A stretch of DNA of 64,000 nt. It comes from a virus. The notes under the pieces are model-generated. The model ran no database searches and was not told where the DNA came from. It saw only the letters and a program-made list of their open reading frames with translations. Positions 15,403 through 64,000 of the stretch are shown one piece after another; position 1 is the stretch's first letter; each line of letters starts with the position of its first letter. The stretch spans positions 1 to 64,000 of IMG/VR virus record IMGVR_UViG_3300008267_000011. One strand, given 5' to 3'. A program made the translations under genes and the position numbers.

Positions 15403-16479
15403 ATGATCAAGTCAATATACAATATAAGCGACGCTACAATTTACGAAAGGTACAGCAAACTAAATACTGGACTTGATCAGGTAATAGAGCTACAGAAAAC
15501 GGAGGTAGACAGTCAGCAATATAATTCACGAATTGTATTAAAGTTTAATACAACCGAATTATCGTCATCTGTAGCTGGAGCGACTAATCCAAAGTTTTTC
15601 CTAAAGCTCTACACAACTGAACCATTAGAGATACCAGTAGATTATACCATATATGCCTATCCGATTTCACAAAGTTGGAATATGGGAACCGGAAGATACG
15701 GCAGCTTACCAACTGGAAGTGATGGAGTTACTTGGGTATACAGAAATAACACAACTGACACAGGATCAGCATGGACAACATCCAGCTTTGCAGCAACAAC
15801 AACTGGTAGCTGGGTAAACAATCCAGGAGGAGGTACATGGTATACATCCTCAACAGCATCACAAAGCTTTAGCTATGAAACTGCTGATGTATACATGGAT
15901 ATCACCAACATAGCATTAGCTTGGATCAGCGGTACAATCAACAACGATGGTCTCATTGTAAAGAAGAGCGATCAAGATGAGTCAAGCAGTAACGTGTTCA
16001 GCAGCCTACGTTTCTTTAGCAAAGATACGCATACGATATACCAACCGCGAATAGAGGTTAAGTACGACGATGCAATCTATCACACATCACATTCCGTAGT
16101 AGATTTTACAGACGAAGCAGTTGTAAACATAACAAACCTTCAATCTCAATACGCTAGCGGAAGTATTGTTAGAATAAACCTATCAGCTAGGCCAAAGTAT
16201 CCAACTAGAACATTTGCAACAAGCAGTAACTACCTAACAACCTATCAACTTCCATCATCAAGCTACTATAGCTTAGTAGATGCGCATACAAACGAAGCTG
16301 TAATGGACTTTGATTCAACCTACACAAAAGTAAGTGCTGATTCTAATGGAAGTTATTTCAAGATAAGTTTAGATCAACTACATGCCGATCGTTACTACAA
16401 AGTATTAATTAAGACGCAAACACAAAATCAAGAGACCTATATTTATGATAAGAACTGGATCTTTAAGGTCCTTAAATAG
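15403..16479 (+). CDS. Baseplate-associated DNRLRE/CBM96-like protein
   Basis: DATIYE..NTG, SRIVLKF, LKLY, SW, VTW, DIT..W, NDG, FFSKD and PRIEV pattern. Confidence 0.65.
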   Translation: MIKSIYNISDATIYERYSKLNTGLDQVIELQKTEVDSQQYNSRIVLKFNTTELSSSVAGATNPKFFLKLYTTEPLEIPVDYTIYAYPISQSWNMGTGRYGSLPTGSDGVTWVYRNNTTDTGSAWTTSSFAATTTGSWVNNPGGGTWYTSSTASQSFSYETADVYMDITNIALAWISGTINNDGLIVKKSDQDESSSNVFSSLRFFSKDTHTIYQPRIEVKYDDAIYHTSHSVVDFTDEAVVNITNLQSQYASGSIVRINLSARPKYPTRTFATSSNYLTTYQLPSSSYYSLVDAHTNEAVMDFDSTYTKVSADSNGSYFKISLDQLHADRYYKVLIKTQTQNQETYIYDKNWIFKVLK

Positions 16480-16484
16480 CATAT

Positions 16485-21706: not shown

Positions 21707-21745
21707 TAAGTGGATTCAAGAAATATCTAGAAAGTAACTTAGCTA

Positions 21746-21752
21746 TATTTAT
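21746..21752 (+). promoter_or_regulatory. Putative late promoter TATTTAT
   Basis: 5 nt before ATG 21758. Confidence 0.7.
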
Positions 21753-21757
21753 ATTCA

Positions 21758-24700
21758 ATGGCAAAGAAACCGACTGATAAGCAAGTATCGTTTTTACAAG
21801 AAAAACCTAGCAAGGTTAGTACTACAATGGCAAAGCCTTTAGCATTGCCAAACCTAGTCGTATCACCACAGGGATATGGTACCTACAAACTAAAGCAACC
21901 GTTTGACTACCCAATAGACGATGTTGTACTGAATGTTTATGGTCGTAATGGGCAGTTGCTTGAAACCTTACCGACACCAAATGGACCTGCAATAGACTTT
22001 GCAGTAGAAAATGGTGCTATTGCAATTGATCTTGAGCAACAGCTAAAAAACTACAACTACCTAGCAGGAGAATTTACAGTAGAGCTAGTTGCAATTAGAA
22101 ATTACTTAGGAGCAGCTCAAGGAGCTAAATTGCAGATCCAAGAAATTTCAAACGATCGACAAGAAATTAGAGCTGTACCAGCACTAATCGACATAAATGC
22201 ACAAGGAAAGTCTGCAAACAGTGATGTAATATTTCAAGACTTCTTCTCAACTGGATTTTTTGAATTAGATAAGCTTAGCATACTACCAAACCTAAGAGTG
22301 TATTGGACGCAACAAGATTCGGTGAAGGTATTCGACTATATTCAAGATAAGTTTACAATCCAAGTAGCTCCGTATAGTATAATATTCAAGCTCATTGAGC
22401 CATTACCTAATGTCCTATCTGTGGACGACTTCATATGGGTAACTCAAAACATAAGCGAACCTATTACAGAAAATGTCATAGTAATACCGCAATCGGAGGT
22501 AAAACAGAGAAAGCGTATTGCTGGACCTAACTTTGATGTAAACGCTAAGAGATCGTTACAACAGTCAACTGGATACAAGAACTGGGATAGTATTCTTACT
22601 TACGCAAGTTCGAGCATAATCGATACAGCATATTCGCAATCTATGGTAGAGGGTATAGCTCTTAACGTGGATTACACGCGATTTGAAAACTTTGTTCACT
22701 TTGGAAGTGCTTACAATCGATTATTCAACTTCACAGAGAAAATTAAGAAGATTGAATACTACCAAAGTATAATTGACTCCGTCAGTACAGACCTAACTGG
22801 ATTAGCAAACAGCGACCTAACATCCAGCCTATACTACGTTACACAAAAACAGACGTATCGAGCTAAGATAGACACAATTAAAGGAGCGTTTGATGGATTT
22901 GAACGCTACCTGTACCACGAGTCGTCAAGCTACGTATCAAATAGTTTTGGTGAGTTTTTAGATATGGCTTGGCCAAAGTCTACCTCAACAAAACCTTACA
23001 CGCTTTATGGATCAAATACGGTTCAAGTAGAGAATTGGCTGACAGGCATTTATGAGTCGGCAAGTGTATACGATCAAAACAATCCACACAAATTATCATC
23101 GTTAGTGCCAAGTCACATCTTAGAGGATGAGTCCAACGAGACTGCGTTAGTTTTAGTGGATATGATAGGTCACTTTTTTGATGTGCAATATGGGTACGTC
23201 GATCACTTTACAAAGATATATAATCGAAACCAAAACTTAACAGAAGGCTTTGCAAAGGACTTAGTGTATCACGTAGCTCAAAGCTTGGGAGCGGATTTTG
23301 ATAATGGTCAATCATTCAACGACCTATGGACGTACACTCTAGGATTCAACTCATCAGGAAGCTACGACAACGAATTAAAACTATCAGCAGAAGATCGTAC
23401 TCGAGAGGTGTGGAAGCGTATTGTTAACAACCTTCCGTACTTAATGAGAACGAGAGGTACGGAGAGAGGATTAAGAGCGTTAATAAACTGCTTTGGTTTG
23501 CCATCTACGATTCTACGAATAAGAGAATTTGGAGGACCTGAACCTGACTTTGATACAAGTTCTACTTACAACCATGATAGGTTTTATTATGCATTAAACG
23601 TTGGAGCTGGTGATACGACTACATCGGGATCGTACATTGCAGTGCCTTGGCTATCAAGCGGATCTACAAATGCACCAGTGGGACTAGAACTGCGTTTCAA
23701 AGCCGCACCGTTTTCTGGCAGCGTTCGACGGTACAACTTAGCAGCATGGTATAGTGGTTCTGTAGGACCAGACTGGGACCCAGCAGGCACCTTTCAGAAT
23801 GCATATGGTACTAATCTAACTAATCCGTATGGTACACTAGACGTCGGTAGAGATAGTGGTGGTGACTTTGTTGAGTATATTGGAGGAACCGGCCAAGATT
23901 ACATAGTTACATCTCAATCATTAAAACTATACATACCAACATCATCAAATAGCCAAACGTTATTTGATGGAGATTGGATTACATTGTATTTGCGAAGAAC
24001 GGGAAGTGCGGTGTTAGGAGTGGGAGTGACTGGTAGTTATGAAATATATGCTGGTAAAAAGACATCCTATAGCGAAACACCACTAGTATATAGTGCTAGC
24101 GTACTTTACACAGGATCTTTTAGCGACACGCTTGGTACAGACGGATACCGTAATGCCCGCGCATTTGCCTACTGGGGTTATACCGGATCTCCAAATACTT
24201 TTAGATGGATGCTAATAGGTAGTTCCAGTACACCAGGAGGTTTTGGATCTCAAACAACAGCAAGCTTCAGTGGAAGTATTCAAGAAGTGAGGTTTTGGAA
24301 CCAGTTTGCTGTAGAAGGAACGGTACCATCAACTGGTTCAACGCTTATTCAACCTTTAGGGCTAAACCTAGAGCAAAGTCCTTTTTATGCCCATACACTA
24401 AACCCAACAACAATTGTAGGTGCAAACTACGCAAACCCAAACTGGACTGGTGCAACTAGTAGTTTTAACGATCTCAACTTTAGATTAAATCTAGGAACGG
24501 ATAATAAAAAAACAAATTTAGATACGACAAGATCGTCATCAAGTTATACGAGCTTTATTATATCGGCTAGTGGCATCATTACAGCCAATCAGTTTCTAAC
24601 AAACTACAACACGCCAATGCTGGTGAGTGGTGGATTCGCTACAGCATCTTGGAACACAGCATCAATGTCCCAATCGTCAAATATTGCCGATTACCCATCC

Positions 24701-27115
24701 GGATATGACTTGTACATTGTCAATATGTACAATTTTGGTTTAACTACCAACCAAATGAAATTAGCGCTAGACTTATTTGATGCAGGATACACAGTACATA
24801 CAATTGGAAACGATTCAACAATAGCAAATTTAACTGGATCTGGAGGAACAACTTGGCCGATCTTATCAGGATCAGCAGCCCCAGCCAATTCTTTTAGCTT
24901 TTCTGGTTCTAAGGCAACTGGAACTTACGGAGTTCCTTCAAATCACCCAATTGGATTTGGGTGGTCTAATTGGCCAGACAACGATAATGATAGTGGTAGA
25001 TGGATCGACAAGTTAAACACAAAACCAGGTCCTAATACCTTAGTATATCCATTAGCAGTATCAGGAGGGTTGCAACTAACAACAACCCCAGAAACAAATA
25101 CAACTGCGCACATGCTTGGGTTTTATGCAGTTAACGTAAAAACAGGCGGTAGGTGGGTACATACGCAAAATAGAGGATACCCGAGTCTATACTTTAGTTC
25201 ATCGGGAGTAATTCCAAATCAAATTATTAATTTCTTATTGAAGAGACCTGATTCGGAGTACATATCAGGATCGCAACCAAATCAAAATTCCAACTGGGCA
25301 GCCCCAACTGCTTTTATTGGGTTTAATGCAAACACAAGCTCGTATTGGACGCCAATAGCAGAATCAAACTATACGCCATGGCCAGATATTGCAGGAAATC
25401 GTCAAATTAGCAACAAGATAAGAGTAGATGAGACGTATTTGCCAAGCGACCAACTATACTGGAATGTAAAAACGGAAAAGGGATTGCAAGATTCTCAACC
25501 AACAGACAGTCCAAAATTAGGAGTTTATCTATCAACAGCCGATCAAGTAAATGAGGACATTGCTGAGCAATTTGGAGGCATCCACTTAGACGATTACATT
25601 GGAAGTTATGCTGATATCTACGAATCTTCTTACGACTCATTGGAAGATGTCCAACGTGAGTATTTTAAAAAGTATGGGTGGAGAGAGGGAGCAAGGTTCA
25701 ACTCACAAACCTATATCAGATTGTTAAGCAACTTTGACGGAGCTCTATTCAGCTTAGTAAAACAATTTGTACCTTACAGAGCAAACTTGCAAACTGGATT
25801 GGTAGTAGAACCTCACGTTTTGCACCGTCCAAAGATTGCAACCAAAAAGCCAACAATCGAAGACCTTTCTTACGAAAGTGCAATCAACATACCCGATCAG
25901 ACGCAGACACCGGGAGGAGAGGTGCAAGATGCTGCAGGAGGAGGACAAGCTAACTATGTTTGGGATGCGGAAATAGACCAACAATACGTTACACCAGTTG
26001 GCGATTATTTTTTACAAGCAGAAGGATCTGTAAGCACTGAAACTACTTTAACGGTAGGAGGTTTGCAAAACGAATTCAATAACAGTCAAGTAGGAGAGCA
26101 AAGGTCAACAGGAGGATCATTATATAGCACAGTACGTGCTGATGAGACGTCTTATGGACGACCAAAGATTGAAGGATCGCAATATGACTTCTACAATTGG
26201 TATAAGACTGGTTCTGGTGATCAAGATTGGACTTATAGCAGAGCTAATTCTAGAGATTACTGGGATCCAATTCAAACAACCGTTCTAGATAGTAGAAAGT
26301 CTGAGACTATGTTAATAGCGGACGCTGGCGTATCTTACAATGGAACGGATATCTACGCAAGTAAAGGAAATTTCTCAGATAACCCACCCAGCATATACAT
26401 ACTAGATAGTGGTTACGTCCAAGACGTTAATGAGGATCCGTCTACAGGCAACAGTATCGTAGGTACCTTAGGATTGAGGGTATTGACGACTTCTCAATCA
26501 ATATCAACTTACTCCAACGCCAATCATTACTGGAGATTGGATACAGGAAATACGCTAACCTACCGAATAGGAGCAACCAGCGCAGCGGTAATATCGACCG
26601 GATCTGCTTGGTTTAATGCCTTCACAACAAGAAACAATCAGGCGGATTACAGTACGGTTGCGTTTAGCTACAAAGCTACCACAGTAGTGCAAAGTGCAAC
26701 AATGTCTGTATGGTTTGGAACATCAGGATCGACGACAACCCCAGAACTAACGCGATCTTTTACAACAACAACAACTACCTCCATCCCTACGCAAACTATC
26801 GTAGGTCCACGAGCAAATTCAGACCTATATGTCGAAATTCGAGCCAGCGGAAGCTTTACTAATGGTGGATTTGCAATCGATGATCTAGTTGTCAAGCATT
26901 TTCAATACGCACCGGTACAAGATTACCACTGCGGCGACAATGCAGCCACTGGACAAAAGAACCAAAAGTACAACGGATCAAAATTAATAAGCACAGATTG
27001 GAATGAAGATAGTTCAGATACAATTGACGGAGGACCGGTGATATCTATTATAGAAGGACCATCTCCAGTGATAGCTGTTAATCCAAATACAAATGGAACC
27101 TTTACTTTTAGATAA
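21758..27115 (+). CDS. Large baseplate wedge protein (gp7/P2 gpI-like core with beta-rich domains)
   Basis: LVPSHI..MIGHFFD..WKRIVNNLPYLMRTRGTERGLRALINCFG; LamG-like FSGSIQEVRFW. Confidence 0.7.
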   Translation: MAKKPTDKQVSFLQEKPSKVSTTMAKPLALPNLVVSPQGYGTYKLKQPFDYPIDDVVLNVYGRNGQLLETLPTPNGPAIDFAVENGAIAIDLEQQLKNYNYLAGEFTVELVAIRNYLGAAQGAKLQIQEISNDRQEIRAVPALIDINAQGKSANSDVIFQDFFSTGFFELDKLSILPNLRVYWTQQDSVKVFDYIQDKFTIQVAPYSIIFKLIEPLPNVLSVDDFIWVTQNISEPITENVIVIPQSEVKQRKRIAGPNFDVNAKRSLQQSTGYKNWDSILTYASSSIIDTAYSQSMVEGIALNVDYTRFENFVHFGSAYNRLFNFTEKIKKIEYYQSIIDSVSTDLTGLANSDLTSSLYYVTQKQTYRAKIDTIKGAFDGFERYLYHESSSYVSNSFGEFLDMAWPKSTSTKPYTLYGSNTVQVENWLTGIYESASVYDQNNPHKLSSLVPSHILEDESNETALVLVDMIGHFFDVQYGYVDHFTKIYNRNQNLTEGFAKDLVYHVAQSLGADFDNGQSFNDLWTYTLGFNSSGSYDNELKLSAEDRTREVWKRIVNNLPYLMRTRGTERGLRALINCFGLPSTILRIREFGGPEPDFDTSSTYNHDRFYYALNVGAGDTTTSGSYIAVPWLSSGSTNAPVGLELRFKAAPFSGSVRRYNLAAWYSGSVGPDWDPAGTFQNAYGTNLTNPYGTLDVGRDSGGDFVEYIGGTGQDYIVTSQSLKLYIPTSSNSQTLFDGDWITLYLRRTGSAVLGVGVTGSYEIYAGKKTSYSETPLVYSASVLYTGSFSDTLGTDGYRNARAFAYWGYTGSPNTFRWMLIGSSSTPGGFGSQTTASFSGSIQEVRFWNQFAVEGTVPSTGSTLIQPLGLNLEQSPFYAHTLNPTTIVGANYANPNWTGATSSFNDLNFRLNLGTDNKKTNLDTTRSSSSYTSFIISASGIITANQFLTNYNTPMLVSGGFATASWNTASMSQSSNIADYPSGYDLYIVNMYNFGLTTNQMKLALDLFDAGYTVHTIGNDSTIANLTGSGGTTWPILSGSAAPANSFSFSGSKATGTYGVPSNHPIGFGWSNWPDNDNDSGRWIDKLNTKPGPNTLVYPLAVSGGLQLTTTPETNTTAHMLGFYAVNVKTGGRWVHTQNRGYPSLYFSSSGVIPNQIINFLLKRPDSEYISGSQPNQNSNWAAPTAFIGFNANTSSYWTPIAESNYTPWPDIAGNRQISNKIRVDETYLPSDQLYWNVKTEKGLQDSQPTDSPKLGVYLSTADQVNEDIAEQFGGIHLDDYIGSYADIYESSYDSLEDVQREYFKKYGWREGARFNSQTYIRLLSNFDGALFSLVKQFVPYRANLQTGLVVEPHVLHRPKIATKKPTIEDLSYESAINIPDQTQTPGGEVQDAAGGGQANYVWDAEIDQQYVTPVGDYFLQAEGSVSTETTLTVGGLQNEFNNSQVGEQRSTGGSLYSTVRADETSYGRPKIEGSQYDFYNWYKTGSGDQDWTYSRANSRDYWDPIQTTVLDSRKSETMLIADAGVSYNGTDIYASKGNFSDNPPSIYILDSGYVQDVNEDPSTGNSIVGTLGLRVLTTSQSISTYSNANHYWRLDTGNTLTYRIGATSAAVISTGSAWFNAFTTRNNQADYSTVAFSYKATTVVQSATMSVWFGTSGSTTTPELTRSFTTTTTTSIPTQTIVGPRANSDLYVEIRASGSFTNGGFAIDDLVVKHFQYAPVQDYHCGDNAATGQKNQKYNGSKLISTDWNEDSSDTIDGGPVISIIEGPSPVIAVNPNTNGTFTFR

Positions 27116-27875: not shown

Positions 27876-28931
27876 ATGGCAAACATATATAAAAGCTTCG
27901 GAGCAGACGATATCGTAGTAGGAGATATCCAAACAGTGAGTCAACCACTATGGTCTGAAAACATTAACCCACTATCAGGAGGCTATGCCACTGGGGTTGG
28001 GTTTTTCACATCATCTACTCAAATCTCACAAAGTGGTAATTATTACACAAACGTGTACCACAAGAATCCTGCATCAGACACCAATGCGGCAATCCAATTT
28101 GCAATTGCATATGGAAATAGGGTAGGTAGCGGATCAGTAGGAGATACAAACACAGTAGGTCAGAACGTAAACGATACTCCAACAAGAGCCGTATACGGAC
28201 AGTATCGTAACCTATTACTTCCACCATCAGATACAGCCTTTACTATCAGTGGATCGACCCCTAACGATATCTTTGTAATAAACGTTGCTCGCTCTCGCTT
28301 CAAGCAAAAGCTAGATCCAGGTAACTGGACATTGCGTATTGGTAGTGGATCGGGTGGAACAGGATCAGCAGCATTGACAAGCTACCTCTCCTTCACCGAC
28401 AATAGTGGAGCAAATACAAATCCAGAAATTAACCAAGCAGGTCGTATATTCTACATCATGTCAGGTTCAGAAGGAACTACAGTAGGTACGACTGTATACG
28501 GACTCTTCTACCCAGATGCAGGCGTGTACGTGTTTAACGCAACTTTGTTGAGCTCGTCTTTAGGAATGGTGCCAGCTACACAATTCAACACAGGAAGTAA
28601 CTCCAACACCGTGAAAAACGCTGTATCATTATTTACTCGTATCAGCGCATCTAGCTACTACGCAGCTCGTAGCGAAGAAAAGATTACATCAACCCATTTC
28701 TTTGTTCGTGTGACAAATAAAGAGTTCAACTTTAGTAACAATCCAACGTTTGTAACAGGAAGTAATGGAGATTTCAAATACGCATCTATGCTAAGAAACC
28801 CAAGTGTGTATGTCACAACTATTGGAATGTATGATGATGCAAATCGCCTATTAGCTGTTGCTAAGCTAAGTCAACCGTTGTTGAAGACTTTTAATCGTGA
28901 GGCATTAGTTAAAGTAAAACTAGACTACTAA
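27876..28931 (+). CDS. Baseplate protein with DUF3751-like C-terminus
   Basis: YVTTIGMYDDANRLLAVAKLSQPLLK..VKLDY. Confidence 0.65.
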   Translation: MANIYKSFGADDIVVGDIQTVSQPLWSENINPLSGGYATGVGFFTSSTQISQSGNYYTNVYHKNPASDTNAAIQFAIAYGNRVGSGSVGDTNTVGQNVNDTPTRAVYGQYRNLLLPPSDTAFTISGSTPNDIFVINVARSRFKQKLDPGNWTLRIGSGSGGTGSAALTSYLSFTDNSGANTNPEINQAGRIFYIMSGSEGTTVGTTVYGLFYPDAGVYVFNATLLSSSLGMVPATQFNTGSNSNTVKNAVSLFTRISASSYYAARSEEKITSTHFFVRVTNKEFNFSNNPTFVTGSNGDFKYASMLRNPSVYVTTIGMYDDANRLLAVAKLSQPLLKTFNREALVKVKLDY

Positions 28932-29006: not shown

Positions 29007-30593
29007 ATGGCAGGAGTATTTAAAAGTTTAGATGCATCAGACGTAAGGATTACGCCCTTCAGAGCCTATAAAGCTTTTAGTGGAGCTGATTCATACACCA
29101 CATACAGCTTGCAACTATCAGCAACGCCTACAGAGTTGGGCAACGATGCTCTGGATTCAGATGCAACCTTATACACAACTAACGGAGTGTTAAAAGACTC
29201 TGCATGGCGATCAACCAATCATCTTTTTTACCAGAACTATTACGATAACACTAAAGCTAGTTTTGGACCATACAACTTTGTAAACCAACCTCGTTTATTA
29301 AGCAATATTGCGTACGTATTATCAATGCCTCAACGTTATATAGGAGAGGGTATAGCTCCAAATACATTAGAAGTTAGTATTGATGGAAATGTATACGTAA
29401 ACGACTTGTATAACAATCTAGTAAAGAGAGACGGTAGATGGTATGCAGGCGGAGAAGTAAGTGCAAGTAGTGTTGTATTTGCAACAAAGCCTTCGAGAGT
29501 TGCTAGAGAATACGATCAAACTGTAAACTACACCTTTGCATCTGCAAGCGCTTTATCGTACGCAACAGACCAGTACCCATCAGAAGTTCAAGTTGAAAAA
29601 TGCCAAGTTCAATATTCAAGTACCCAAGGTACTATGCTGAAGTTGCAGCAGTCGTCTAGTATTGTAATTAAACCAAATGCTGAGGAGTATAATAGAGCTT
29701 TCAATTTCATAGGTAGAGACTTCAGCATTGCAGCATCATTTGACGTGTCTAGTGTAACTGGCGATTGTGTTTTATTGCAAAAATACGAACCATCGAATAC
29801 TTGGCGAGTAACGGAGAATGGAGAAGTCGCAACGCAACCGTTACGTAACTACCCATACAAGCTAACCTATCGTCAAAGTGACGGATATCTTGTGTTTGAA
29901 AAAACAGATGGTTTTACCACCATGTCCTTTTCAAGTAGCGCAGCCTATAGTAGCAATGAAGTGTTTTTACTAGCACGATCAGGCTCAACTTTCTATCTTG
30001 GATCAGATCCAAGCAACTTAGCAACAGCCACAGACACCTTTGTAAGTGGAGGAGTTGACCAACATTGTGCAAATCCTTCACCAATTTATATTGGCAGTAG
30101 TTACACAAAAACTACAGCAAATTTGCTAGTTGGTAATGTGAGCTTTTTTGATGAGTGCTTGACTGACAATCAACTGAGGTCCTTACAAAGCAGTGTAGTG
30201 TTGAATAACCCATACGCAACTGTAGGCAATGTATTCCCGCAACATGGAATGGTGGTAATAACCAGCCCGACATTAGCAGCGACAGCAACTAGTGATGGAG
30301 TAGGTGATGTTCAGTATAGAGGAACAACAACAATATACGAAAACGAAATTAGCTGTACAATCTCTCCAGGTGAGTTTGGATTTAGTGGCAATCCAACTCT
30401 ACAAAAGTATAATCCAACTACAAATCAATATGAGCTTACTGATTTTGCAACAGGATCTGCGTTTAGACCTTACATATCACAAATAGGCTTGTATAATGAC
30501 AAGGGTAGCTTGGTTGTAGCAGGAAAGCTATCGCAACCAATACGGTTACCAAATAACGTAGATACTACAATAATAGTAAAATTTGACAGATAA
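29007..30593 (+). CDS. Baseplate protein, paralog of 27876-28931 with an inserted LamG-like domain
   Basis: Shared FKSL..D, EF.FS.NPT and IGLY.D...L..KLSQP blocks; extra beta-rich middle. Confidence 0.65.
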   Translation: MAGVFKSLDASDVRITPFRAYKAFSGADSYTTYSLQLSATPTELGNDALDSDATLYTTNGVLKDSAWRSTNHLFYQNYYDNTKASFGPYNFVNQPRLLSNIAYVLSMPQRYIGEGIAPNTLEVSIDGNVYVNDLYNNLVKRDGRWYAGGEVSASSVVFATKPSRVAREYDQTVNYTFASASALSYATDQYPSEVQVEKCQVQYSSTQGTMLKLQQSSSIVIKPNAEEYNRAFNFIGRDFSIAASFDVSSVTGDCVLLQKYEPSNTWRVTENGEVATQPLRNYPYKLTYRQSDGYLVFEKTDGFTTMSFSSSAAYSSNEVFLLARSGSTFYLGSDPSNLATATDTFVSGGVDQHCANPSPIYIGSSYTKTTANLLVGNVSFFDECLTDNQLRSLQSSVVLNNPYATVGNVFPQHGMVVITSPTLAATATSDGVGDVQYRGTTTIYENEISCTISPGEFGFSGNPTLQKYNPTTNQYELTDFATGSAFRPYISQIGLYNDKGSLVVAGKLSQPIRLPNNVDTTIIVKFDR

Positions 30594-35133: not shown

Positions 35134-38100
35134 ATGGCAATCGTACAACGTCCCTTTCTAAGGAGAAACTTTACACAATACCAATACGCTGTCGTTGATT
35201 CGAGTGAAACTTCGCCTGATTTCTTCGACATTTCCTTCTTTCCTACTAAGATTGGAGGTGGAAAGAGTGTTATCAAATTCAAAGGAAATCCTAACAACCT
35301 AGCGCTGCTAAAGGAGGTTGAGATTGAGGTAGTAGACGCAGCAGGCAATCCAGTAAAATCTGAGGTTGTTGAGTTAGTTGATAGATTCAACAACTACTTT
35401 GCTTCTATTAACGTACACGACGACACTGCTGCTGGAACAGGATACGTTTACTTGGTAGGAGTTGCAAATAAGAATTCTACTGGCCAGCCGTTAGATAGAT
35501 CGAGCTATAACGAGTTAGGGTATAACTTAATTTGGGGTAGGCCAATAGACATCCAACCATTTGAACGAAACGACTCAGAGCTAATCTTCAACGAAGCTCC
35601 AGCAATCCAAGTAGCACAGATAATTGCACCAGCCCGTATTAGCTCTAATTTAGTGGCAGAAAGCTTATTCACAGCAACGACTTCATCAAACGCAACAATA
35701 ACAACTTCAAAGTTCAGGGGGTTTGATAAGAAGCAATCGACAAGCGTACAAGTTGTCGATAAAAAGCTCAACAGCATAAAGATACAGCCTGATACGCAAG
35801 CAACCACTACAAACATTGTAGACACTACAATAAGAACAGCAAACCCCGACGTTATAGGAGGCTACCAGGCAAACGACTTAGAGAGATTCAACACAGTAGC
35901 AACAACCGCTGTTTCCTTTTTTAGTAGTAGCCATGTCGGTGGCTACATGCAATTTTTTACACAAAGCTATACGCTACAACCCTCATTACCATCCACATCG
36001 CTACTAGCAACAACAAACCCATACAATAGCTTTGAGGTTAATGGGCTGACGCAATCGATAGACGATCAATTAGGATACTGGAAATCTACAGTAGTTCGTG
36101 TACTAAACGACAAGACTGCCTATCTCGAAACTCCGGTGCAAGTTAACACTAGAGTTCCTGGAAGATTAGGCTATGTGCAAAACACCCACACGTACAGCAA
36201 CGTATCCCAGTTCACAGCTAGTTTGATATACGTAGACAATTCGAGTCTGTATATAACAAGTAGCCTAATGTCTCAAAGCTATATCCAAGTCACTTGCTAC
36301 GATTTAAAACCAATTGCTGGAGAGGTTACTAGAATAAAGACCTATTTCAAAAGGTCATCTGCAACACAAGACTGGACGCTGTTGGGTGACCAGGAAGTCT
36401 ATCCTCCTGAGTACCTAACAGACGCTGAAAAGCCTAATCAAGCATCGTACGCACGCACGCTAAGCGACTTCTTGCTAATAGGACACTTTACAGACAACGC
36501 AGTACTGCAAGACAATTGGAGTTTTATCAATGAGACGCCAACTGGATTTGATAATGCAACGGGATCAATCGTAAACAATCCACTGCAGGATAGTGTACGT
36601 TTGCAAACAAGTGGATCGACGAATAAGATACTAACGACAAAATACAACCAAAGCTACTTAGAGAGTCAAGTATACACTATAGCATTTGATTGTGTGCTGG
36701 ATCCGTATACTGATCTAGAGGTTTACATGAATAGTGATGTGCTAAGCACAACGTTAATATCGCAGGACTTTTTGCCTAAAGCGTATACTAAGTCCAAAAA
36801 CAAAGAACTGACGCGTTACCCGGATGGGTACTCGAGGTTTGGTAGATCGATTGGACGTATTGCAAATGCAACCGATCAACAAAAACAATATGGCCGTGTG
36901 CTGTTTGATTTCCTTACAGATGGAGATGGATTAGGTAAGCCTCTACTTAGATGTGTACCAAATGGAGATGTGACTGGATCAAGCTATATCTCAAAAGTTA
37001 ATCTAACACCAAGAAAACTAAACGGATACACACCAGAACTAATACAATTTGCACTACCAGCACCACCAGACTTTAGCTACAACCTTTCAGAGAGCATTGA
37101 TTACAAATTCGAATACTACGACTACTCAGGTAAGCAGTCTGAGTTTATTAGCTACATAAAGGACGAAAACCTAGAACTTGTTTCAGAGATCCAAACAAAT
37201 AAGTGCCAAGCTGAGCGTAAAAGCTTCAGCTTTACATCAGACTACTGGATTTCGTCAAGTTACACAATTCCTAACTACATAGTAAGTGGTCGTACCTTGG
37301 AGCAAATTACTTCCGAGAGCTATAGTGCGGATACGAGACTATATCCTATGTTTGTTAACGGTGCTGTAGGCAGTATACTCGGATCGTACGCAGGTGCAGC
37401 TGCTAGTAACACACCAGTAGACGGATGGAATTGCGCAATACCCTACAATTATATGTTCTCTAACTCAGTAACATATTCAAGCTTCCGGTATATATCGGCA
37501 TCAATATCGACTACAAACATGACGGTGTATCAAAACGCAGCTGGTCGTGTTACAAGTTCGTGGAGGTGGTTTGATACCTTCACCGACCTATACAACACAG
37601 GACCGGGGATTGGGACAGCATTGCAAGCTTACGCGTACACTACAGCCTCTATTTCAGCAATCGACAACGCGCGATTCACAACTCACAGCTGTGTTGGAAT
37701 CAGACGCGACGATGTATCACAATCATATGCAGACTACACTAACGCAGCAAGTAATACAGCGCGAACTGTAGCGTTAAAGAAGAGAAGATTGGTTTGGCCA
37801 ACTGGCGGATCTGTCACATCAAGCTACTTTACTGAAAATGGAGGTATATACAACGTTAAGTTCAAACTAAAAAAAGACACAGACTACCTACCCGATACAG
37901 GATCGTACTTGATGGTCTACCTATTCAATGCATACACAGACTATACAACAAGTAGCATAGGAACAGCTGGTTGGTATCCACCATCAAGAAACATAGTAAA
38001 GATAGGACATGGATACACATCAGGCAGTATCACAACGCCAACTATAACCTGGTACGACAGTGCAACGGGATACTACTACGATGAATACGACATAAACCTA

Positions 38101-55157: not shown

Positions 55158-56774
55158 ATGAATTTATTCGAAAACATTCAAGAGCCAAACAGAGGACAAG
55201 AAAACCGCGCCTTAGTAGGTAAGTGGAAGAAGTCTGGTCTTTTGGAAGGCTTGAAAGGTACAGAACAAGCAACTGTTGCTGTCCTTTTGGAAAATCAAGC
55301 AAAGCAGTTGATTAAGGAAGGTAACGCTTCTTCTGCTGGTACAGCTGGTGCTGGATTTGAACAATGGCACGGTGTTGCTTTGCCTTTGATCCGTCGTGTA
55401 TTTGCTGAGATCTCTGCAAAAGAGTTCGTCAGCGTACAACCAATGAACCTACCTTCTGGTCTAGTATTCTATTTGGATTTCAAATATGGTACTAACAAAG
55501 GACCACAAGGATTTGCACCTGGTGCTAAGAACCAAACTGGTACTTTGCAAGGTATCACTTCACAGTCTGGAGCTCCAACCGACGGTCTTTATGGCGCTGG
55601 TCGTTTTGGATATTCTGCAAACAACAAAGCTAACACAGGAGTGTTGACAACTACCGGTTCTACGAGCTTAGGTGATGTAAACTACGACGGAGCTTTCACA
55701 GCTTCAGTAAACACAGCAACTGGGTACAAGACAGTAGCGGTAACTTTGCCAACTGACGCAGATGCTTTGGCCGTTCGTTCATTCCGTTTGTTCTCTGGAT
55801 CAACTGAATTGACTGCAGGAACTCAATACTTCCCAGCATTCACCAAGGTTGCAGGTGGCAATGTGCAATTCGTAATTACTGCATCTGCAGTAACTACTGG
55901 ATCTTTCACAGCTGCAATTTCCTACTCTATCCAACCAACTAACGATGCTCGTACAGACTTTGAATACGCTGCAAATCGTGTAAGCGATTCTAGCTCATTG
56001 AGCCTAGACACTGACCTTAACATCCCAGAAATCGAATTGCAAATGCGTTCAATTCCTGTGACTGCTAAGACTCGTAAGTTGAAAGCAAGCTGGACTCCAG
56101 AATTTGCTCAAGACCTTAACGCTTACCATTCAGTAGATGCTGAAGCAGAATTGACTGCTATGTTGTCTGAGTACGTTTCTATGGAAATTGACTTGGAAAT
56201 CTTAGATATGTTGATTTCTTCTGCTGCTACTACTGAGTACTGGTCAGCTGAGGTTGGTAAGAACTACAATGCTGCAACACAAGCGTTTGAAACTTCTGGA
56301 TTCAGTGGTCAAGCTTATATTCAAGGTACTTGGTTTGCTACATTGGGAACAAAACTACAAAAAGTTTCTAACCAAATCCACGCTAAGACCCTTCGTGGTG
56401 GTGCTAACTTCCTAGTATGTTCTCCAGACGTATCTACTATCCTTGAGTCTATCCCAGGATATGCTGCAGATGGTGATGGTGAAAAAGTTAAGTATGCAAT
56501 GGGTGTACAGAAAGTGGGTGCTTTGACTAGCCGCTACACAGTGTACAAGAACCCATACATGCAAGAGAACACTGTATTGATGGGATTCCGTGGATCTCAG
56601 TTCTTGGAAACAGGTGCTGTGTACGCTCCATACATTCCATTGATGTTGACTCCACTTGTATACGATCCTGCTAACTTCATCCCACGTCGTGGTGTGATGA
56701 CACGTTACGCTAAGATCGTCACTCGTCCAGAGTTCTACGGTAAGGTGTATGTAGCTGGTTTAGCTCAATACTAA
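55158..56774 (+). CDS. gp23: Major capsid protein
   Basis: LLENQ, VQPMNLPSGLVF, AKTRKLKASWTPEFAQDL, YAPYIPL and GVMTRY. Confidence 0.97.
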   Translation: MNLFENIQEPNRGQENRALVGKWKKSGLLEGLKGTEQATVAVLLENQAKQLIKEGNASSAGTAGAGFEQWHGVALPLIRRVFAEISAKEFVSVQPMNLPSGLVFYLDFKYGTNKGPQGFAPGAKNQTGTLQGITSQSGAPTDGLYGAGRFGYSANNKANTGVLTTTGSTSLGDVNYDGAFTASVNTATGYKTVAVTLPTDADALAVRSFRLFSGSTELTAGTQYFPAFTKVAGGNVQFVITASAVTTGSFTAAISYSIQPTNDARTDFEYAANRVSDSSSLSLDTDLNIPEIELQMRSIPVTAKTRKLKASWTPEFAQDLNAYHSVDAEAELTAMLSEYVSMEIDLEILDMLISSAATTEYWSAEVGKNYNAATQAFETSGFSGQAYIQGTWFATLGTKLQKVSNQIHAKTLRGGANFLVCSPDVSTILESIPGYAADGDGEKVKYAMGVQKVGALTSRYTVYKNPYMQENTVLMGFRGSQFLETGAVYAPYIPLMLTPLVYDPANFIPRRGVMTRYAKIVTRPEFYGKVYVAGLAQY

Positions 56775-57524: not shown

Positions 57525-57529
57525 CGTGA

Positions 57530-57536: not shown

Positions 57537-57551
57537 ATGAAAACTTAGTGA

Positions 57552-58736
57552 ATGGCAAATATACCTATCTGGCCTGGTTCAAGTTCCTTTGTACTGGCTT
57601 CAGCTTCATACTACAATACTCCGTCTACTGGTTCTAGACCAACACCATTTGGCTATTACGATAACGATAGTACTTTTAAGACAGATGCAGATAGTGTTGC
57701 AACATTCTGCGCAGTTAAGTTAGGATATCCTATCCTTGAGGTAGAGATGCAAGATCGTAACTTCTGGGCTTGCTTAGAAGAGGCTGTGACAGAGTTTTCT
57801 ACTCAAGTTAATATGTACAATGCTAAGGATTATATGCTATCCTTAGTTGGTGCATCAAATCAAACAAACTTGACAGGAAACGTAGTTACTCCAAACCTAG
57901 GACGTATAATCGACTTAGCGCACAACTACGGTAGTGAGGTTGGAAGTGGTGGAGATGTAGATTGGAAGAAGGGCTACATAGACATGGTACCAGGATCACA
58001 AAGCTACGATCTAGATGTACTATGGGCAAATGTGAGTGAGAGTGGTAATAGAATTGAAGTGAAGCGTGTGTATCACGACTTCTCCCCAGCAATCTCAAGA
58101 TACTTTGACCCGTATGTAGGAACAGGAGCTGGAACTCAGCAATTACTGGATGGCTTTGGTTGGGGATCGTATTCACCTGCAGTAAACTTCTTAGTAATGC
58201 CTTTATACGCGGATTTGCTGCGTATACAAGCGATAGAAATGAACGACCAGATAAGGAAGTCATCTTACACTTTTGAACTGCGTAATAACAAGTTAAATCT
58301 GTTTCCAATCCCAACTGTAGCAGTTCGAATGTGGTTTGAGTATGTGGTAGTTGAGGATAGAAATAACCCAGTAAAAGTGAGTGGATCAAATTATATCACA
58401 GACCTTAGCAATGTTCCTTACAATAGAATAGAGTACACTAACATTAACCACATTGGAAAGCAATGGATATACAAGTATGCTCAGGCGTGTGCTAAGGAGT
58501 TGCAAGGAGTTATCCGAAGCAAATACTCAACAGTTCCAATCCCAGGAGCCGAAGTAACGCTTAATGGAACTGATTTGATTGCACAAGGCAGAGAGGATAA
58601 GACAAACCTACTGACAGAGCTTAAGGAATTGCTTCAAGGAATGACAAGACAAGGTCAGTTTGAGCAAGAGCAAGCAGTAGCAACTGCTATGAATTACCAA
58701 TTAGGAAAAGTACCTTTACCAATATACATTAAGTAA
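57552..58736 (+). CDS. gp13: Neck protein
   Basis: KLGYPILEVEM, WIYKYAQA, KY..PIPGAEVTLNG. Confidence 0.85.
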   Translation: MANIPIWPGSSSFVLASASYYNTPSTGSRPTPFGYYDNDSTFKTDADSVATFCAVKLGYPILEVEMQDRNFWACLEEAVTEFSTQVNMYNAKDYMLSLVGASNQTNLTGNVVTPNLGRIIDLAHNYGSEVGSGGDVDWKKGYIDMVPGSQSYDLDVLWANVSESGNRIEVKRVYHDFSPAISRYFDPYVGTGAGTQQLLDGFGWGSYSPAVNFLVMPLYADLLRIQAIEMNDQIRKSSYTFELRNNKLNLFPIPTVAVRMWFEYVVVEDRNNPVKVSGSNYITDLSNVPYNRIEYTNINHIGKQWIYKYAQACAKELQGVIRSKYSTVPIPGAEVTLNGTDLIAQGREDKTNLLTELKELLQGMTRQGQFEQEQAVATAMNYQLGKVPLPIYIK

Positions 58737-58737
58737 C

Positions 58738-59232: not shown

Positions 59233-60404
59233 GCACTAAATCTAAATCCGCAAACCAAAAAGAAATACTTGCAGGTCAAGATGCGCCAACTTACAATCGA
59301 GCCAACGATGTTCGGATGGATGATGGGTTGAAAGGTTTGACTATTGGCTTAAAGGATTTAGATTACACAATCAAGTACTACTTTGATGAGGTAATTCGAC
59401 CAACAATAGATGACTTTGGGTCAAGACGAGCAGTACCGGTGATATACGGATCTCCTGAAAGATGGAAAAACATTCAAGAGGATGGTTATTTTCGTGATAG
59501 AGAGGGAAAGATTCTAGCACCAATAGTTGCTTACAAGAGAACCGGAGTAGCTAAAAACAGAATGTTGGGTAGTAAGGTTGATGGCAATCACCCACAAGTA
59601 TACTACACCCAGCAGATCAAGTACAATCAAGAAAATAGATACGATCAATTTAGCAGACTAACAAATAGATCACCACTCAAGCGTTATGTTAATACGGTGA
59701 TGGCTGATTACGTTGACATTACATACGAAGTAGTCATTTGGACAGACTTTGTTGATCAGATGAATGAGATAGTGGAAGCAGTATTGTACTCAGAGGGAAG
59801 CTTTTGGGGAGAGAAGGATCGTTTTAAGTTTAGAACTAAGATTGATAGCTTTACAAACACAACAGACGCTTTGCAAGATAATGAGCGTATTGTGAGAACT
59901 AACTTCACAATTACTTTATTTGGTTATATTGTACCTGACGTTACTGTGAAACATTTGAGCGAGAAGCTAGCAGATAATACACTTAGCATAGCGCAAATCA
60001 ATACGGAAATTGAAAGTGACGCAATTCTCGAAACGACAACCACATCACAACAACCAGCACAAGCAATAGCAGCGACACCACCGCCAAATAGAGTAACTAC
60101 AACAGTAGACAATTCAGTGGTAGTCTACATAGGAACCAACAGAGCATTAAGTGCAAATCCAACAAACACAAACACAGTGGTATTCAACCCAGCGACGTTC
60201 TTAGAAGCACCACATCCACTATCGGCAACAGACAAGACATCGTTTACGTACTTTATTAATGGGCAACTAATAGAACCAGCTGCAGTGTCTGATTTCGTAG
60301 ACAACGGAAACGATACTTGTACGCTTACAATCGACATAGCGCAATTAGGATTCACACTAGCTACTAGCGATGAGGTAGTTGCAATCGGTAAATTTACAAT
60401 ATAA
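59229..60404 (+). CDS. gp15: Tail terminator / sheath stabilizer with C-terminal extension
   Basis: VPVIYGSPERW, YVDITYEVVIWT..QMNEIVE; P/T linker and an extra domain. Confidence 0.7.
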   Translation: MSTKSKSANQKEILAGQDAPTYNRANDVRMDDGLKGLTIGLKDLDYTIKYYFDEVIRPTIDDFGSRRAVPVIYGSPERWKNIQEDGYFRDREGKILAPIVAYKRTGVAKNRMLGSKVDGNHPQVYYTQQIKYNQENRYDQFSRLTNRSPLKRYVNTVMADYVDITYEVVIWTDFVDQMNEIVEAVLYSEGSFWGEKDRFKFRTKIDSFTNTTDALQDNERIVRTNFTITLFGYIVPDVTVKHLSEKLADNTLSIAQINTEIESDAILETTTTSQQPAQAIAATPPPNRVTTTVDNSVVVYIGTNRALSANPTNTNTVVFNPATFLEAPHPLSATDKTSFTYFINGQLIEPAAVSDFVDNGNDTCTLTIDIAQLGFTLATSDEVVAIGKFTI

Positions 60405-61228
60405 TGAGCTTAATAAGAGGAGTGCAATTAAGAGAGGCAACTGGTAGCTATGCAACTACTGGAAGTAATGTGTTTGTAGGTAATCAAATTGTTACTGGAA
60501 GTTTGTTTACAACTGGATCAAATACGCTAATAGGCTCCACTACACTAACTGGATCATTTAGCGTATCAGGCTCTACCTTACAAACGGGCAACAATACTCT
60601 AATTGGAAATACGGTATTAAGTGGTAGTATAGAGGTAAGTGGGTCCTCAAACTTCCATAACAGCTCATTCACTGTTACTGGATCAAGTAACTTTTTAGGA
60701 AACATCAACTTTGACGGCAATGTTAATGTAGTTTATTCATCTTCATTTTATCATTGGGGGAATAAGCTGTTTAACTACGGAGCATTCTCAGACACAACAT
60801 CTCAATCAGGATCAGCTAATACGGCTTATCCAATGACATTTAACACTAACGATGTTGTTGGTTATGGTATTAACATAGTATCACAATCTAGAATTACGAT
60901 TGATCACACAGGACTATATAATCTACAATTCTCAGCACAATTAAATAGAGTAGCTAGCTCAGGACATGCTGATGTTTCTATATGGTTACGAGTTACTGGA
61001 AGTGATGTTGCAAATAGCTGTACTGACGTATCATTAAATGGCAATGCTAGCCAAGCTGCTGTAGTAGCTGCATGGAACTTTGTATTCCCAATGTCCGCAA
61101 GTCAGTACTGTGAGTTGGTATGGAGCACTACAGATCCTAACATAAACATCTCATCTATATCCACACGCACTGACCCAGTACGTCCAGCAGTACCCTCTAT
61201 AATTTTAACAGTTACCCAAGTAGCATAA
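60404..61228 (+). CDS. Short fibre/whisker protein with TGS repeats and C1q/BclA-like head
   Basis: Periodic xTGS/xSGS stalk; TGLYNLQFSAQL..WLR..WNF..ELVW head. Confidence 0.65.
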   Translation: MSLIRGVQLREATGSYATTGSNVFVGNQIVTGSLFTTGSNTLIGSTTLTGSFSVSGSTLQTGNNTLIGNTVLSGSIEVSGSSNFHNSSFTVTGSSNFLGNINFDGNVNVVYSSSFYHWGNKLFNYGAFSDTTSQSGSANTAYPMTFNTNDVVGYGINIVSQSRITIDHTGLYNLQFSAQLNRVASSGHADVSIWLRVTGSDVANSCTDVSLNGNASQAAVVAAWNFVFPMSASQYCELVWSTTDPNINISSISTRTDPVRPAVPSIILTVTQVA

Positions 61229-62144: not shown

Positions 62145-62152
62145 TTTAGGTT

Positions 62153-64000
62153 ATGGCAGGACCTCTAGATTTCACAGGTCAAAATATTGAAGACAGTTAT
62201 CAACGGGTCTTACAGACTGATGGTCTCATCATTACTGATGGAACTGGGTCTTTTGTAAATTTACAATTTACTGGATCATTTTCTGGGTCCCTTGAAGGAA
62301 CAGCAACAACAGCATCTTACGTACAACAAGCTGAATCAGCTAGCTATGTGACAATTAATCAAGGAGACGGTATTACTGTTTCCGGAATGACTATATCGGC
62401 TAACTTACGTAGCGTAAATGGAAACTTGCCTGATGGAAGTGGCAATGTATCTGTGTCCTTAGCAGCAGTGTTGACAGGAACTTCTGCATCACTTGCCTCG
62501 TATGCAACTGGTGGATTGGCCGAAGGTACTGTTTGGATTGTGTCTGGAGACGCTGCTCCCGAAAAGAATGGAACCTCATACGTCTACGATTCCGGCTCTG
62601 TTGGAGTATGGTATCAAATAGCACCGCTAGATCAAACAGCAGCAGATGCTAGATATGCGAGGATAAACACAACGACAGTTCAAAACCTAACTAGCAGCTT
62701 TGCTACGACAGCATCCTATGCAGCTAATGGAGGTGTTACGCGGATACTAGCCGGTAGTGGAATATCCTTATCGCCAACAAATGGACTAGGAGCTGTAACC
62801 ATTACAAGCACAGGAGGAGGCGGTGGAGGAACTTTTCCATTCTCTGGAAGTGCTGTAATTACCGGATCTTTAGTAGTTTCTAGCTCTACCCCAACTATTA
62901 ACGGGCTTACAATAAGTCCAATAAAAAACACGACTACAAACATATCGATAGGCCTTGGTGCGCTTCTCACCGTAAGTAGTGGTGTGCGTAACATAGGGAT
63001 TGGATCCGGATCACTTCAAGGAGGTAATCAGTCAGACAATGTGGCTATAGGAATATCTGCTATGGCCAACTCTGGAAACACCGGCTACAACGGAGTAGCT
63101 ATAGGAAGTTACGCGCTACAAAATGGCACAGGTGCATCAAACACAGTAGTCGGATACTCAGCAATGAGGTATGCAACAAGCTGGGCAAGCTGCTTAGCTG
63201 TTGGATTTGAGGCTGGATTGTACTTAACTGGATCTAATAATACACTACTTGGTGTAGGAGCAGGAAGGACTTTTGTTGGCGATCGAAGTGTGCTTATAGG
63301 TGGTGCAGCGGGAGAACGTGGAGCCGGATCTTCAACTGGCAACAGAGGTAATGTTGCAATAGGAGCTCTTGCTTTAGCGGGAGATAACGTGTTACCTCCC
63401 AGAAGCATAACTGGTCAGTATAACTTTGCTATGGGATATCGTGCTATGGGCCAAGGTCATAATGGAGCAGGTAACACCGCCATCGGTACAGAAGCCCTAT
63501 TAGAACTAGCCACGGGATCATACAACGTCGCTCTAGGATATAGAGCATCACAGGCGCTTGTAAATGGTACCAGTAACTTTTATATGGGCTACGATGCCGG
63601 TACTACTAACAGATATGGCAATGGTACTATTGCAATAGGAAATAGTGCTGCTAGAGCGTTATTTTACGACCCTGCCTTTCTAGGTGTGAACACTAGAACG
63701 ATTGCAATCGGAGCTTCGGCTTTACGAGCAAGTAGTACACTTAACGTATCTGTAGACAATATTGCAATTGGAGAAAGCTCGATGACCCTACACGTATCAG
63801 GCTCAGGCAACATTTCAATTGGAGTAGAATCGCTAAACGCACATACCTCTGGAAGCGGTAACGTGGCAATTGGACACCAAGCCATGAAGAATAGTCCAGT
63901 TAGCTCGATAATAGAAAACAACGTAGCTATAGGACTTACAGCTGGTCAGTATCTCTCCGGAAGCAACAACACAATACTAGGAGCTAATGGTACAAACAAT
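62153..64000 (+). CDS. Tail fibre/adhesin, 3' truncated by the window (not in ORF track)
   Basis: ATG 62153 (MAGPLDFTGQNIEDSY..); the same frame reads open in the stretches checked, including the window end; ~14-aa NxAxG repeats (NVAIG, NTAIG, NVALG, NIAIG) of YadA-head type from ~62940. Confidence 0.8.
   Translation, partial: MAGPLDFTGQNIEDSYQRVLQTDGLIITDGTGSFVNLQFTGSFSGSLEGTATTASYVQQAESASYVTINQGDGITVSGMTISANLRSVNGNLPDGSGNVSVSLAAVLTGTSASLASYATGGLAEGTVWIVSGDAAPEKNGTSYVYDSGSVGVWYQIAPLDQTAADARYARINTTTVQNLTSSFATTASYAANGGVTRILAGSGISLSPTNGLGAVTITSTGGGGGGTFPFSGSAVITGSLVVSSSTPTINGLTISPIKNTTTNISIGLGALLTVSSGVRNIGIGSGSLQGGNQSDNVAIGISAMANSGNTGYNGVAIGSYALQNGTGASNTVVGYSAMRYATSWASCLAVGFEAGLYLTGSNNTLLGVGAGRTFVGDRSVLIGGAAGERGAGSSTGNRGNVAIGALALAGDNVLPPRSITGQYNFAMGYRAMGQGHNGAGNTAIGTEALLELATGSYNVALGYRASQALVNGTSNFYMGYDAGTTNRYGNGTIAIGNSAARALFYDPAFLGVNTRTIAIGASALRASSTLNVSVDNIAIGESSMTLHVSGSGNISIGVESLNAHTSGSGNVAIGHQAMKNSPVSSIIENNVAIGLTAGQYLSGSNNTILGANGTNN

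Follow-up and report, generated by a model that had tools for sequence, protein, structure and literature searches.

To our knowledge, glycosylation of the phage virion has been chemically shown only for a few actinobacteriophages, and we know of no acceptor code for it. The subject of this article is a short serine-terminated tripeptide, [ST]-[GAS]-S, in the virion proteins encoded by a window of 64,000 nucleotides, which spans the opening 64 kb of an IMG/VR viral contig of 94,415 bp (IMGVR_UViG_3300008267_000011; CheckV completeness ~54%) from a lineage of very abundant, T4-like aquatic myoviruses. The outward-facing parts of the head, tail and fibre proteins hold Ser/Thr-Gly/Ala-Ser at 3-6 times chance; the candidate use of the motif in this lineage is probably that of an attachment site for a sugar coat. 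The best single explanation, put forward tentatively and from sequence, is a virion O-glycosylation sequon read by two glycosyltransferases (GTs) of the lineage, here termed GT-A and GT-B.

Virion O-glycosylation by phage-encoded GTs is described for mycobacteriophages (Freeman et al. 2023, as cited in passages of PMC12619734 and PMC11256854); according to a passage of PMC12619734, the glycans are chemically demonstrated at the C-termini of capsid and tail-tube subunits. The system considered here is alike in that soluble GTs are encoded by the complete relatives of the phage, with a proposed cytoplasmic sugar-coating of capsid and tail proteins. It differs in that an internal tripeptide is spread across the insertion domains of many proteins rather than confined to C-terminal extensions, and in that the GTs are unrelated and belong to T4-like aquatic myoviruses; furthermore, it is predicted from sequence.

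GtfA/GtfB is a two-component O-GlcNAc transferase that acts on serine-rich-repeat adhesins and Lactobacillus glycoproteins (PMC5796085). Its two partners are adjacent, paralogous proteins of GT4 type (~500 and 440 aa) that work jointly in the cell on Ser in small-residue contexts (S-A-S-like), and the adjacent, paralogous GT-A and GT-B would resemble them in this; a heterodimer is likewise predicted for GT-A and GT-B. Membership of the GtfA/GtfB family is not supported, because DUF1975, the N-terminal domain that defines GtfA/GtfB, has no match in either protein at E up to 0.01 and the similarity to the GtfA structure (4pqg) is insignificant (E 0.26). GtfB is a non-catalytic chaperone, whereas the catalytic EX7E motif is retained in GT-A and GT-B alike, and the acceptors would be folded virion domains rather than long Ser-rich repeats. 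The SASSAS signature motif of Lactobacillaceae S-layer proteins, discussed alongside their glycosylation (PMC10221546), is also a short Ser-small-Ser pattern; it is however one local cluster in one secreted protein, it occurs in other organisms with other enzymes, and neither hydrophobic flanks nor a Gly preference are described for it.

The general O-glycosylation system of Bacteroidota, the likely host phylum, uses the sequon D-[S/T]-[A/I/L/V/M/T] (PMC5796085), which resembles the phage motif in having three residues and a hydrophobic residue after the acceptor; it differs in being periplasmic and lipid-linked. The first-pass annotation had set this host sequon apart from the phage tripeptide, and D-[ST]-[AILVMT] is indeed not enriched in the Ser/Thr-rich virion proteins of the contig (45 versus 49.2 expected) or of Flavobacterium phage immuto (46 versus 49.8). 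Chlorovirus B736L is, like GT-A and GT-B, a virus-encoded GT4 enzyme. Phage GTs that hypermodify DNA are also established (Pyle et al. 2024, as cited in a passage of PMC12619734).

The tripeptide and its carrier proteins

The + strand holds all long open reading frames (ORFs) of the window; beyond it the contig encodes tail sheath, tube and a baseplate protein, followed by replication genes. The expected number of [ST][GAS]S in each protein was derived from 1000 composition-preserving shuffles. The proteins that the first-pass annotation had singled out by hand count all lie above these shuffles, and the hand counts were nearly exact. The features concerned are listed here, with motifs observed versus expected:

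13091-15401, + strand: gp25/gp6-like baseplate wedge genes, motif-free and upstream of the next protein
15403-16479, + strand: 358-aa protein immediately downstream of the baseplate wedge genes, 11 versus 2.5 (z 5.4)
21758-27115, + strand: 1785-aa tail/baseplate-periphery protein, 36 versus 8.9 (z 9.1), densest at aa 600-1200
27876-28931, + strand: protein C, 351 aa, 10 versus 2.2
29007-30593, + strand: 528-aa protein with a weak excess, 6 versus 3.0 (p 0.06)
35134-38310, + strand: 1058-aa tail-spike/fibre-like protein, 15 versus 5.2
55158-56774, + strand: gp23-type major capsid protein, 6 versus 1.9, matching PF07068 over its full length (E 5.9e-75, 253 bits)
55485-56012, + strand: insertion domain of the capsid protein (aa 110-285), containing all six capsid motifs
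57552-58736, + strand: head-completion/adaptor-like protein, 4 versus 0.8, with three within the first 30 aa
60404-61228, + strand: 274-aa fibre-like protein, 13 versus 3.5
62153-64000, + strand: start of a 1631-aa tail fibre that ends at position 67048 of the contig, 18 versus 6.3, matching a PHROG tail spike/virion protein

The excess thus persists under the per-protein shuffling that had been proposed as a check, and its near-absence elsewhere is confirmed: the Mre11-Rad50-like protein, the portal and the 977-aa coiled coil have 0 motifs, and the terminase and the 737-aa protein have 1 each. The motif was also described as directional, which holds, since the counterpart [ST][GAS]T is found 5 times in the 1785-aa protein where 8.1 are expected; similarly, it was said to be more than a single repeat domain, and the carriers have no detectable shared similarity save for the short C-terminus of two neighbours. 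Past the end of the window the excess continues, with observed/expected counts of 57/17.7 for the whole fibre, 28/12.7 for a 1210-aa protein (70247-73879) and 13/4.1 for the sheath.

An unbiased scan of all exact tripeptides ranks TGS first (33 versus 5.2 expected) and SGS second (32 versus 5.7). When residues are shuffled locally, in windows of 10-40 residues, the motif still reaches a z of ~16-18, so Ser/Thr/Gly-rich patches are not the cause; Ser codons of both the TCN and AGY families are used within the motifs, in many combinations, which argues for selection on the protein rather than on a DNA word. The motif is order-specific, with SGT at 0.2x, TGT at 0.7x and [GAND]GS at 0.4-0.5x in the same proteins. 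The Ser/Thr content of the carriers is 20-27% and a few sites lie within short SGSASGS-type runs; an equally Ser/Thr-rich protein of the contig (81354-83351) has no motif (0 versus 2.7 expected). Three tandem paralogues of 277-286 aa at 67502-70209 of the contig (L002:5502-8209), with 14-15% Thr, have 0-3 motifs versus 1.4-2.5 expected and provide an internal negative control.

The anatomy of the motif was pooled over 418 Ser/Thr-rich proteins of the lineage. Position 1 favours S (3.8x) and T (3.6x), followed by D (1.5x), with all others at or below 1.2x; position 2 favours G (3.7x), A (2.5x) and S (1.4x), with D/E/K/R/N at 0.4-0.6x; position 3 favours S alone (3.7x), followed by L (1.48), D (1.25), N (1.19) and T (1.18). 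These preferences are flat in control phages. On either side of the motif, at -1 and +1, F/I/V/L are preferred by 2-5x, whereas K, E, D and P are shut out; these hydrophobic flanks are also seen in immuto and in Rhodothermus phage RM378, while the [ST]GS sites of control phages have background flanks. The full motif is Phi-[S/T]-[G>A>S]-S-Phi, Phi being the hydrophobic flank. The original definition, [ST]-[GAS]-S, needs one amendment: the strongly selected core is [ST]-G-S, at ~6x, with the A and S variants of position 2 weaker (~2.3x).

Pfam and PHROGs assign no family to seven of the nine motif-bearing window proteins searched, the 1785-aa protein being among those with neither a Pfam nor a PHROG family. 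Across its 54 orthologues, protein C shows a 5.6x enrichment of [ST]GS; three sites are 85-91% occupied and the others turn over. The N-terminal part of the 274-aa protein (60404-60700) is built from an ~18-residue repeat with two TGS/SGS per unit, the motifs falling at aa 13, 19, 31, 37, 49, 55, 73 and 79; the repeat looks like a fibrous β-structure that incorporates the motif. Protein C and the 528-aa protein have a C-terminal module of ~90 aa in common (28674-28928 and 30339-30590; 32% identity, E 2e-6), which may be an attachment or chaperone-recognition domain. Upstream of the baseplate wedge genes, two neighbouring motif-free proteins contain cell-wall hydrolase domains, namely a VanY/M15 peptidase domain (4700-6214, aa 350-476) and an endolysin/chitinase-like region (6224-7897, aa 354-495).

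Placement on the virion and distribution in the lineage

The capsid protein was aligned over 80 orthologues of 54-80% identity, with a mean of 5.0 motifs per capsid. All recurrent motif columns fall in the insertion domain (aa 119-247 of the window's own protein), with occupancies of 0.1-0.75; in this domain [ST]GS is found 179 times versus 44 expected and [ST]GT is at 0.7x, while in the HK97 core [ST]GS is found 0 times versus 18 expected. The HK97 core does hold conserved [ST]-G-T sites (65 versus 20 expected), a reversal of the insertion-domain pattern. In the sheath, 13 of the 13 motifs lie at aa 101-507, outside the Pfam-defined conserved C-terminal core (518-787), and the immuto sheath is alike. 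The tail tube (76698-77186) has zero motifs, and no enrichment is found in portal, terminase, tape measure, wedge or replication proteins. The first-pass annotation had placed the motif on outer virion proteins; this stands for the variable outward domains of capsid and sheath, and an outward location is inferred for the other carriers. In AlphaFold models of low to moderate confidence, most motifs map to loops or strand ends, and helices contain two: the capsid model has a predicted local distance difference test score (pLDDT) of 51 overall and 60-81 within the insertion domain, and that of protein C (AlphaFold2, pLDDT 68) has no fold match.

Among cultured phages, the nearest capsid relatives of the window are Flavobacterium phage vB_FspM_immuto (54.5%), Microcystis phage Mel-JY01 (52%) and Rhodothermus phage RM378 (38%), and the capsid protein of the uncultured 484-kb phage LR756508 is 51% identical; a DNA search with the packaging region gave no match among cultured phages. 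The lineage is widespread in aquatic metagenomes, IMG/VR containing more than 598 capsid relatives, while GT-B protein clusters number at least 8000. Among the 889 ORFs that flank the capsid gene in 80 relatives, [ST]GS is found 1347 times versus 416 expected (3.2x) and [ST]GT is at 1.14x. Whole-genome [ST]GS ratios, given for all ORFs of at least 150 aa and then for Ser+Thr-rich ORFs, are 3.2/4.0 for the window's own contig, 2.5/3.3 for immuto, 2.55/3.6 for RM378, 2.5/3.0 for Mel-JY01, and 1.8/2.5 (G003) and 2.8/4.7 (G004) for two complete IMG/VR relatives. The [ST]GT ratio is ~1 in four of these six genomes, 1.6 in immuto and 2.9 in Mel-JY01; the apparent [ST]GT excess in Mel-JY01 is due to one 805-aa low-complexity protein alone (PP395634.1, 635-3052), which has 75 [ST]-G-T and 37 [ST]-G-S.

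The corresponding [ST]GS ratios of control phages are 0.64/1.0 (T4), 1.5/1.6 (cyanophage S-PM2), 0.67/1.0 (crAss001), 1.5/2.1 (Cellulophaga phage phi14:2) and 0.9/1.1 (phiKZ); the mildly enriched controls have an equal excess of [ST]GT and x-G-S and thus no Ser specificity. Control proteins never exceed a z of ~3; in RM378 and Mel-JY01, by contrast, numerous proteins reach 4-15x without a single [ST]GT. Two of the negative controls, crAss001 and phi14:2, infect Bacteroidota; host phylum is therefore not the explanation. Per-locus statistics over the 80 relatives gave no usable natural negatives, the lowest (L043) having 5 sites on a 19-kb contig, and in two huge phages, LR756508 and LR756511, the 41 kb around the capsid gene offer too few expected sites to inform. 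LR756511 was rejected as a clean negative since other GT1 genes are present.

LR756508 offers a natural contrast. Its capsid has a homologous 193-aa insertion domain with 0 motifs; genome-wide, [ST]GS is at 1.41x and [ST]GT at 1.61x, TGS and SGS are not among the top tripeptides, and no alternative enriched Ser/Thr tripeptide was found.

The glycosyltransferase pair of the relatives

The first-pass annotation had assigned the modifying enzyme to DNA outside the window. A candidate GT island is indeed present in the matching region of the relatives, though its genes are absent from this contig. In immuto the island covers 11 kb (49.1-59.9 kb) and encodes five GTs, two WecE aminotransferases, an epimerase, a methyltransferase and a 'pilin glycosylation protein'; by synteny it maps to the part that is missing from the window's contig. 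The constant core of the island in all relatives comprises GT-A (~470 aa), GT-B (~440 aa), a ~160-aa protein and a 207-aa GT2. The tailoring genes beside this module differ among close relatives and include a UDP-GlcNAc 2-epimerase, a dehydratase, a carbamoyltransferase and a UDP-sugar dehydrogenase, as well as WecE aminotransferases, a TOD1/MUCI70-like GT and WbqC (L088, L089, immuto 49-60 kb); this variability suggests glycan diversification.

GT-A matches PF00534 (GT4/Glycos_transf_1) at 45.2 bits against a cut-off of 26.4. GT-B is a paralogue of GT-A (hhalign 97.8%); in locus L088 it scores 23.8 bits, just under the same cut-off, and many GT-B homologues carry PF00534. Each protein also matches Pfam 'GT4-conflict', and neither has a membrane segment. 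The EX7E motif is kept in all main-lineage members, as EGFGLxxxE in GT-A and EGFGRPxxE in GT-B; it was not found in p014 of RM378, a diverged GT-B. A role for GT-B as a non-catalytic, GtfB-like chaperone is consequently unsupported in the main lineage, p014 alone being without EX7E. The best solved-structure match of both proteins is the chlorovirus enzyme B736L (PDB 3oy2; E 3e-8 for GT-A and 0.011 for GT-B), but this is limited to the generic nucleotide-sugar-binding domain and allows no functional inference. GT-A starts with M-x-LPKLRK (L088:5331-5370) and GT-B ends with one or two LPxLKK/LPKLKK copies (L088:7990-8062); this peptide lies outside the catalytic folds and could be a shared docking or targeting signal. 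GT-A of Mel-JY01 is annotated as two ORFs of 190 and 302 aa that are jointly full-length (PP395634.1 83441-84932; L094:5998-7489), which stems from a frameshift, faulty sequencing or a genuine split.

Full-length GT-A homologues among 50,697 phage records are found only in the capsid relatives. A search for GT-B homologues likewise led only to this lineage, which leaves no independent contrast. The pair is present in both complete IMG/VR relatives and in six of ten long fragments. RM378 has only GT-A and p014 (hhalign 89%, E 2e-6), with no other island genes detected.

A model of the GT-A/GT-B heterodimer scores 0.76, the best of three controls scoring 0.00; the mark applied is reached by 58 of 80 solved complexes and by 2 of 110 mismatched pairs. 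Contact agreement among the runs is at least 67% and the pLDDT of the partner at least 84, which supports the prediction that GT-A and GT-B bind. The most confident modelled contacts are formed by the C-terminal tail of GT-A (N-[WF]-x-P-R...), which is conserved in five of five genomes with a clear GT-B; GT-A of LR756508 ends just before it.

LR756508 keeps GT-A in the same slot, after a PD-(D/E)XK nuclease, but is without GT-B: an unrelated 261-aa protein occupies the slot, followed by a cytidylyltransferase and a GT29-like gene. The cytidylyltransferase and the GT29 gene (sialyltransferase-like) lie after GT-A at ~302-310 kb of LR756508.1 (L171:6352-16360), and this glycan set is preceded by a DNA methylase, a thymidylate synthase, the PD-(D/E)XK nuclease and an SLOG/DprA-like protein. 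An unbiased profile of the 33 immuto proteins conserved in Mel-JY01, G003 and G004 finds four to be missing from LR756508, namely GT-B, GT2, a WcaA-like GT and PhoH; a strict profile that includes RM378 is uninformative because RM378 is too diverged for BLAST. Co-occurrence of motif and enzymes in relatives, which had been suggested as a check, is thus seen in that the motif excess tracks the island, but it amounts to about one gain and one loss.

Competing explanations and meaning

Under the tentatively preferred reading, phage-encoded soluble GTs would O-glycosylate virion proteins during or after their assembly in the cytoplasm of the host, with Phi-[S/T]-[G>A>S]-S-Phi as the acceptor sequon; the initiating enzyme would most likely be the GT-A and GT-B heterodimer, and the variable sugar-nucleotide and GT genes downstream would elaborate the glycan. 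We infer protein to be the substrate of the GTs, the motif to be their acceptor, and one of its residues to be modified; the strongest candidate residue is the Ser of position 3, a position that tolerates nothing but Ser. The specificity looks like that of enzyme recognition, and the reading is supported by carriers that share no domain and by sites that turn over while their counts are kept.

Several points weigh against it. The GT-A/GT-B pair is absent from the 94 kb of contig available, whose completeness is ~54% and which does not extend to the syntenic region. Papers on glycosylation were sought for RM378, immuto and Mel-JY01 and none was found, and no glycan is reported on any virion of the lineage. 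The three GTs lost in LR756508 form one locus and hence represent a single evolutionary event; the association of motif and GTs is phylogenetically shallow, with about one origin and one loss. The complex model may have passed through likeness to solved GT4 dimers. The island opens with the pair, which adjoins a clamp-loader subunit, DUF1599/Nmad1, nucleases and SLOG-like proteins; such surroundings are usual for genes of DNA-base modification. The neighbours of the pair are thymidylate synthase and DNA methylase in LR756508 and polymerase and ribonucleotide reductase in RM378; as DNA-glycosylating phage GTs are established, the target of the pair may be DNA. The conservation of the Ser of position 3 does not significantly exceed that of other serines (p 0.10, 0.14 and 0.77), with a trend in two of three families and significance in none, and the motif is not avoided in non-virion proteins. 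The structure models are of low to moderate confidence, so that individual sites are at most putatively exposed. Finally, the hydrophobic -1 and +1 residues and the exclusion of Pro and charged residues suit a strand-turn-strand, and most G-containing motifs lie at strand ends or in loops in the models.

One rival is a purely structural, unmodified motif specific to the lineage, which would build strand ends or tight turns in β-rich decoration and fibre domains and co-occur with the GTs through shared ancestry; this is unlikely, although it deserves serious weight. It is consistent with the motif standing within the regular repeats of the fibre and of the 60404 protein, with three nearly invariant sites in protein C, and with all motif-positive genomes belonging to one lineage. 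Generic turns (type II') would however accept N, D or T at position 3, yet only S is enriched there, and an Asx/ST-turn would accept D or N at position 1, where D-G-S (1.52x) and N-G-S (1.08x) remain far from the 3.6-3.8x of S and T. The homologous insertion domain of LR756508 does without the motif, equally Ser/Thr/Gly-rich fibres of five other phages are without the S/T asymmetry, and some of the motifs lie within predicted helices or in long loops; that carriers have no domain in common and sites turn over at a constant count argues in the same direction.

It is improbable that the motif is a recognition site unrelated to GT-A and GT-B, the pair instead glycosylating phage DNA, lipid or a host glycan while the motif serves another island enzyme, a host enzyme, another modification or ligand binding. 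The established DNA-hypermodifying GTs and the genes around the pair, which follows DUF1599/Nmad1, a PD-(D/E)XK nuclease, an NS endonuclease and an SLOG-like protein and adjoins the nucleotide and DNA enzymes named above in LR756508 and RM378, favour this alternative, as do the match of both GTs to 'GT4-conflict', a 7-deazaguanine DNA-modification pathway encoded by immuto, and the GT2 and WcaA-like GTs, which co-vary with the motif equally to GT-B. It is opposed by RM378, in which the excess is present with GT-A and a diverged GT-B as the only island genes detected, and by LR756508, in which GT-A alone accompanies no motif; furthermore, the sugar-tailoring genes vary among close relatives as in a surface-glycan locus, and the phylogenetic profile yields no kinase or other candidate modifying enzyme. 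An artefact of composition or low complexity, to which the 20-27% Ser/Thr of the carriers and some SGSASGS-type runs could point, can be dismissed, as it is refuted by whole-protein (z 9) and local-window (z 16-18) shuffles, by the depletion of SGT and [GAND]GS in the same proteins, and by the equally Ser/Thr-rich proteins of the same genome that are motif-free (81354-83351; paralogues at 67.5-70.2 kb).

The broader claim, that this aquatic T4-like lineage sugar-coats every outward virion domain by means of a heterodimeric GT-A/GT-B that reads Phi-[S/T]-[G/A]-S-Phi, is possible but doubtful. A sharply defined motif that is confined to exposed domains, together with a GT pair that shares its distribution and is predicted to be heterodimeric, makes a precise hypothesis, and three members of the lineage are in culture, namely Flavobacterium phage immuto, Rhodothermus phage RM378 and Microcystis phage Mel-JY01. 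If glycosylation is the correct reading, phage particles would have their first O-glycosylation code defined by sequence, and virion surface maps and glycan shields would be readable straight from metagenomes. Were the motif structural instead, it would still be a marker of the lineage that flags outward-facing domains. The lineage infects at least Bacteroidota, Cyanobacteria and Rhodothermus; a sugar coat on its virions, if true, would matter for how the particles adsorb, stick, are grazed and decay in natural waters.

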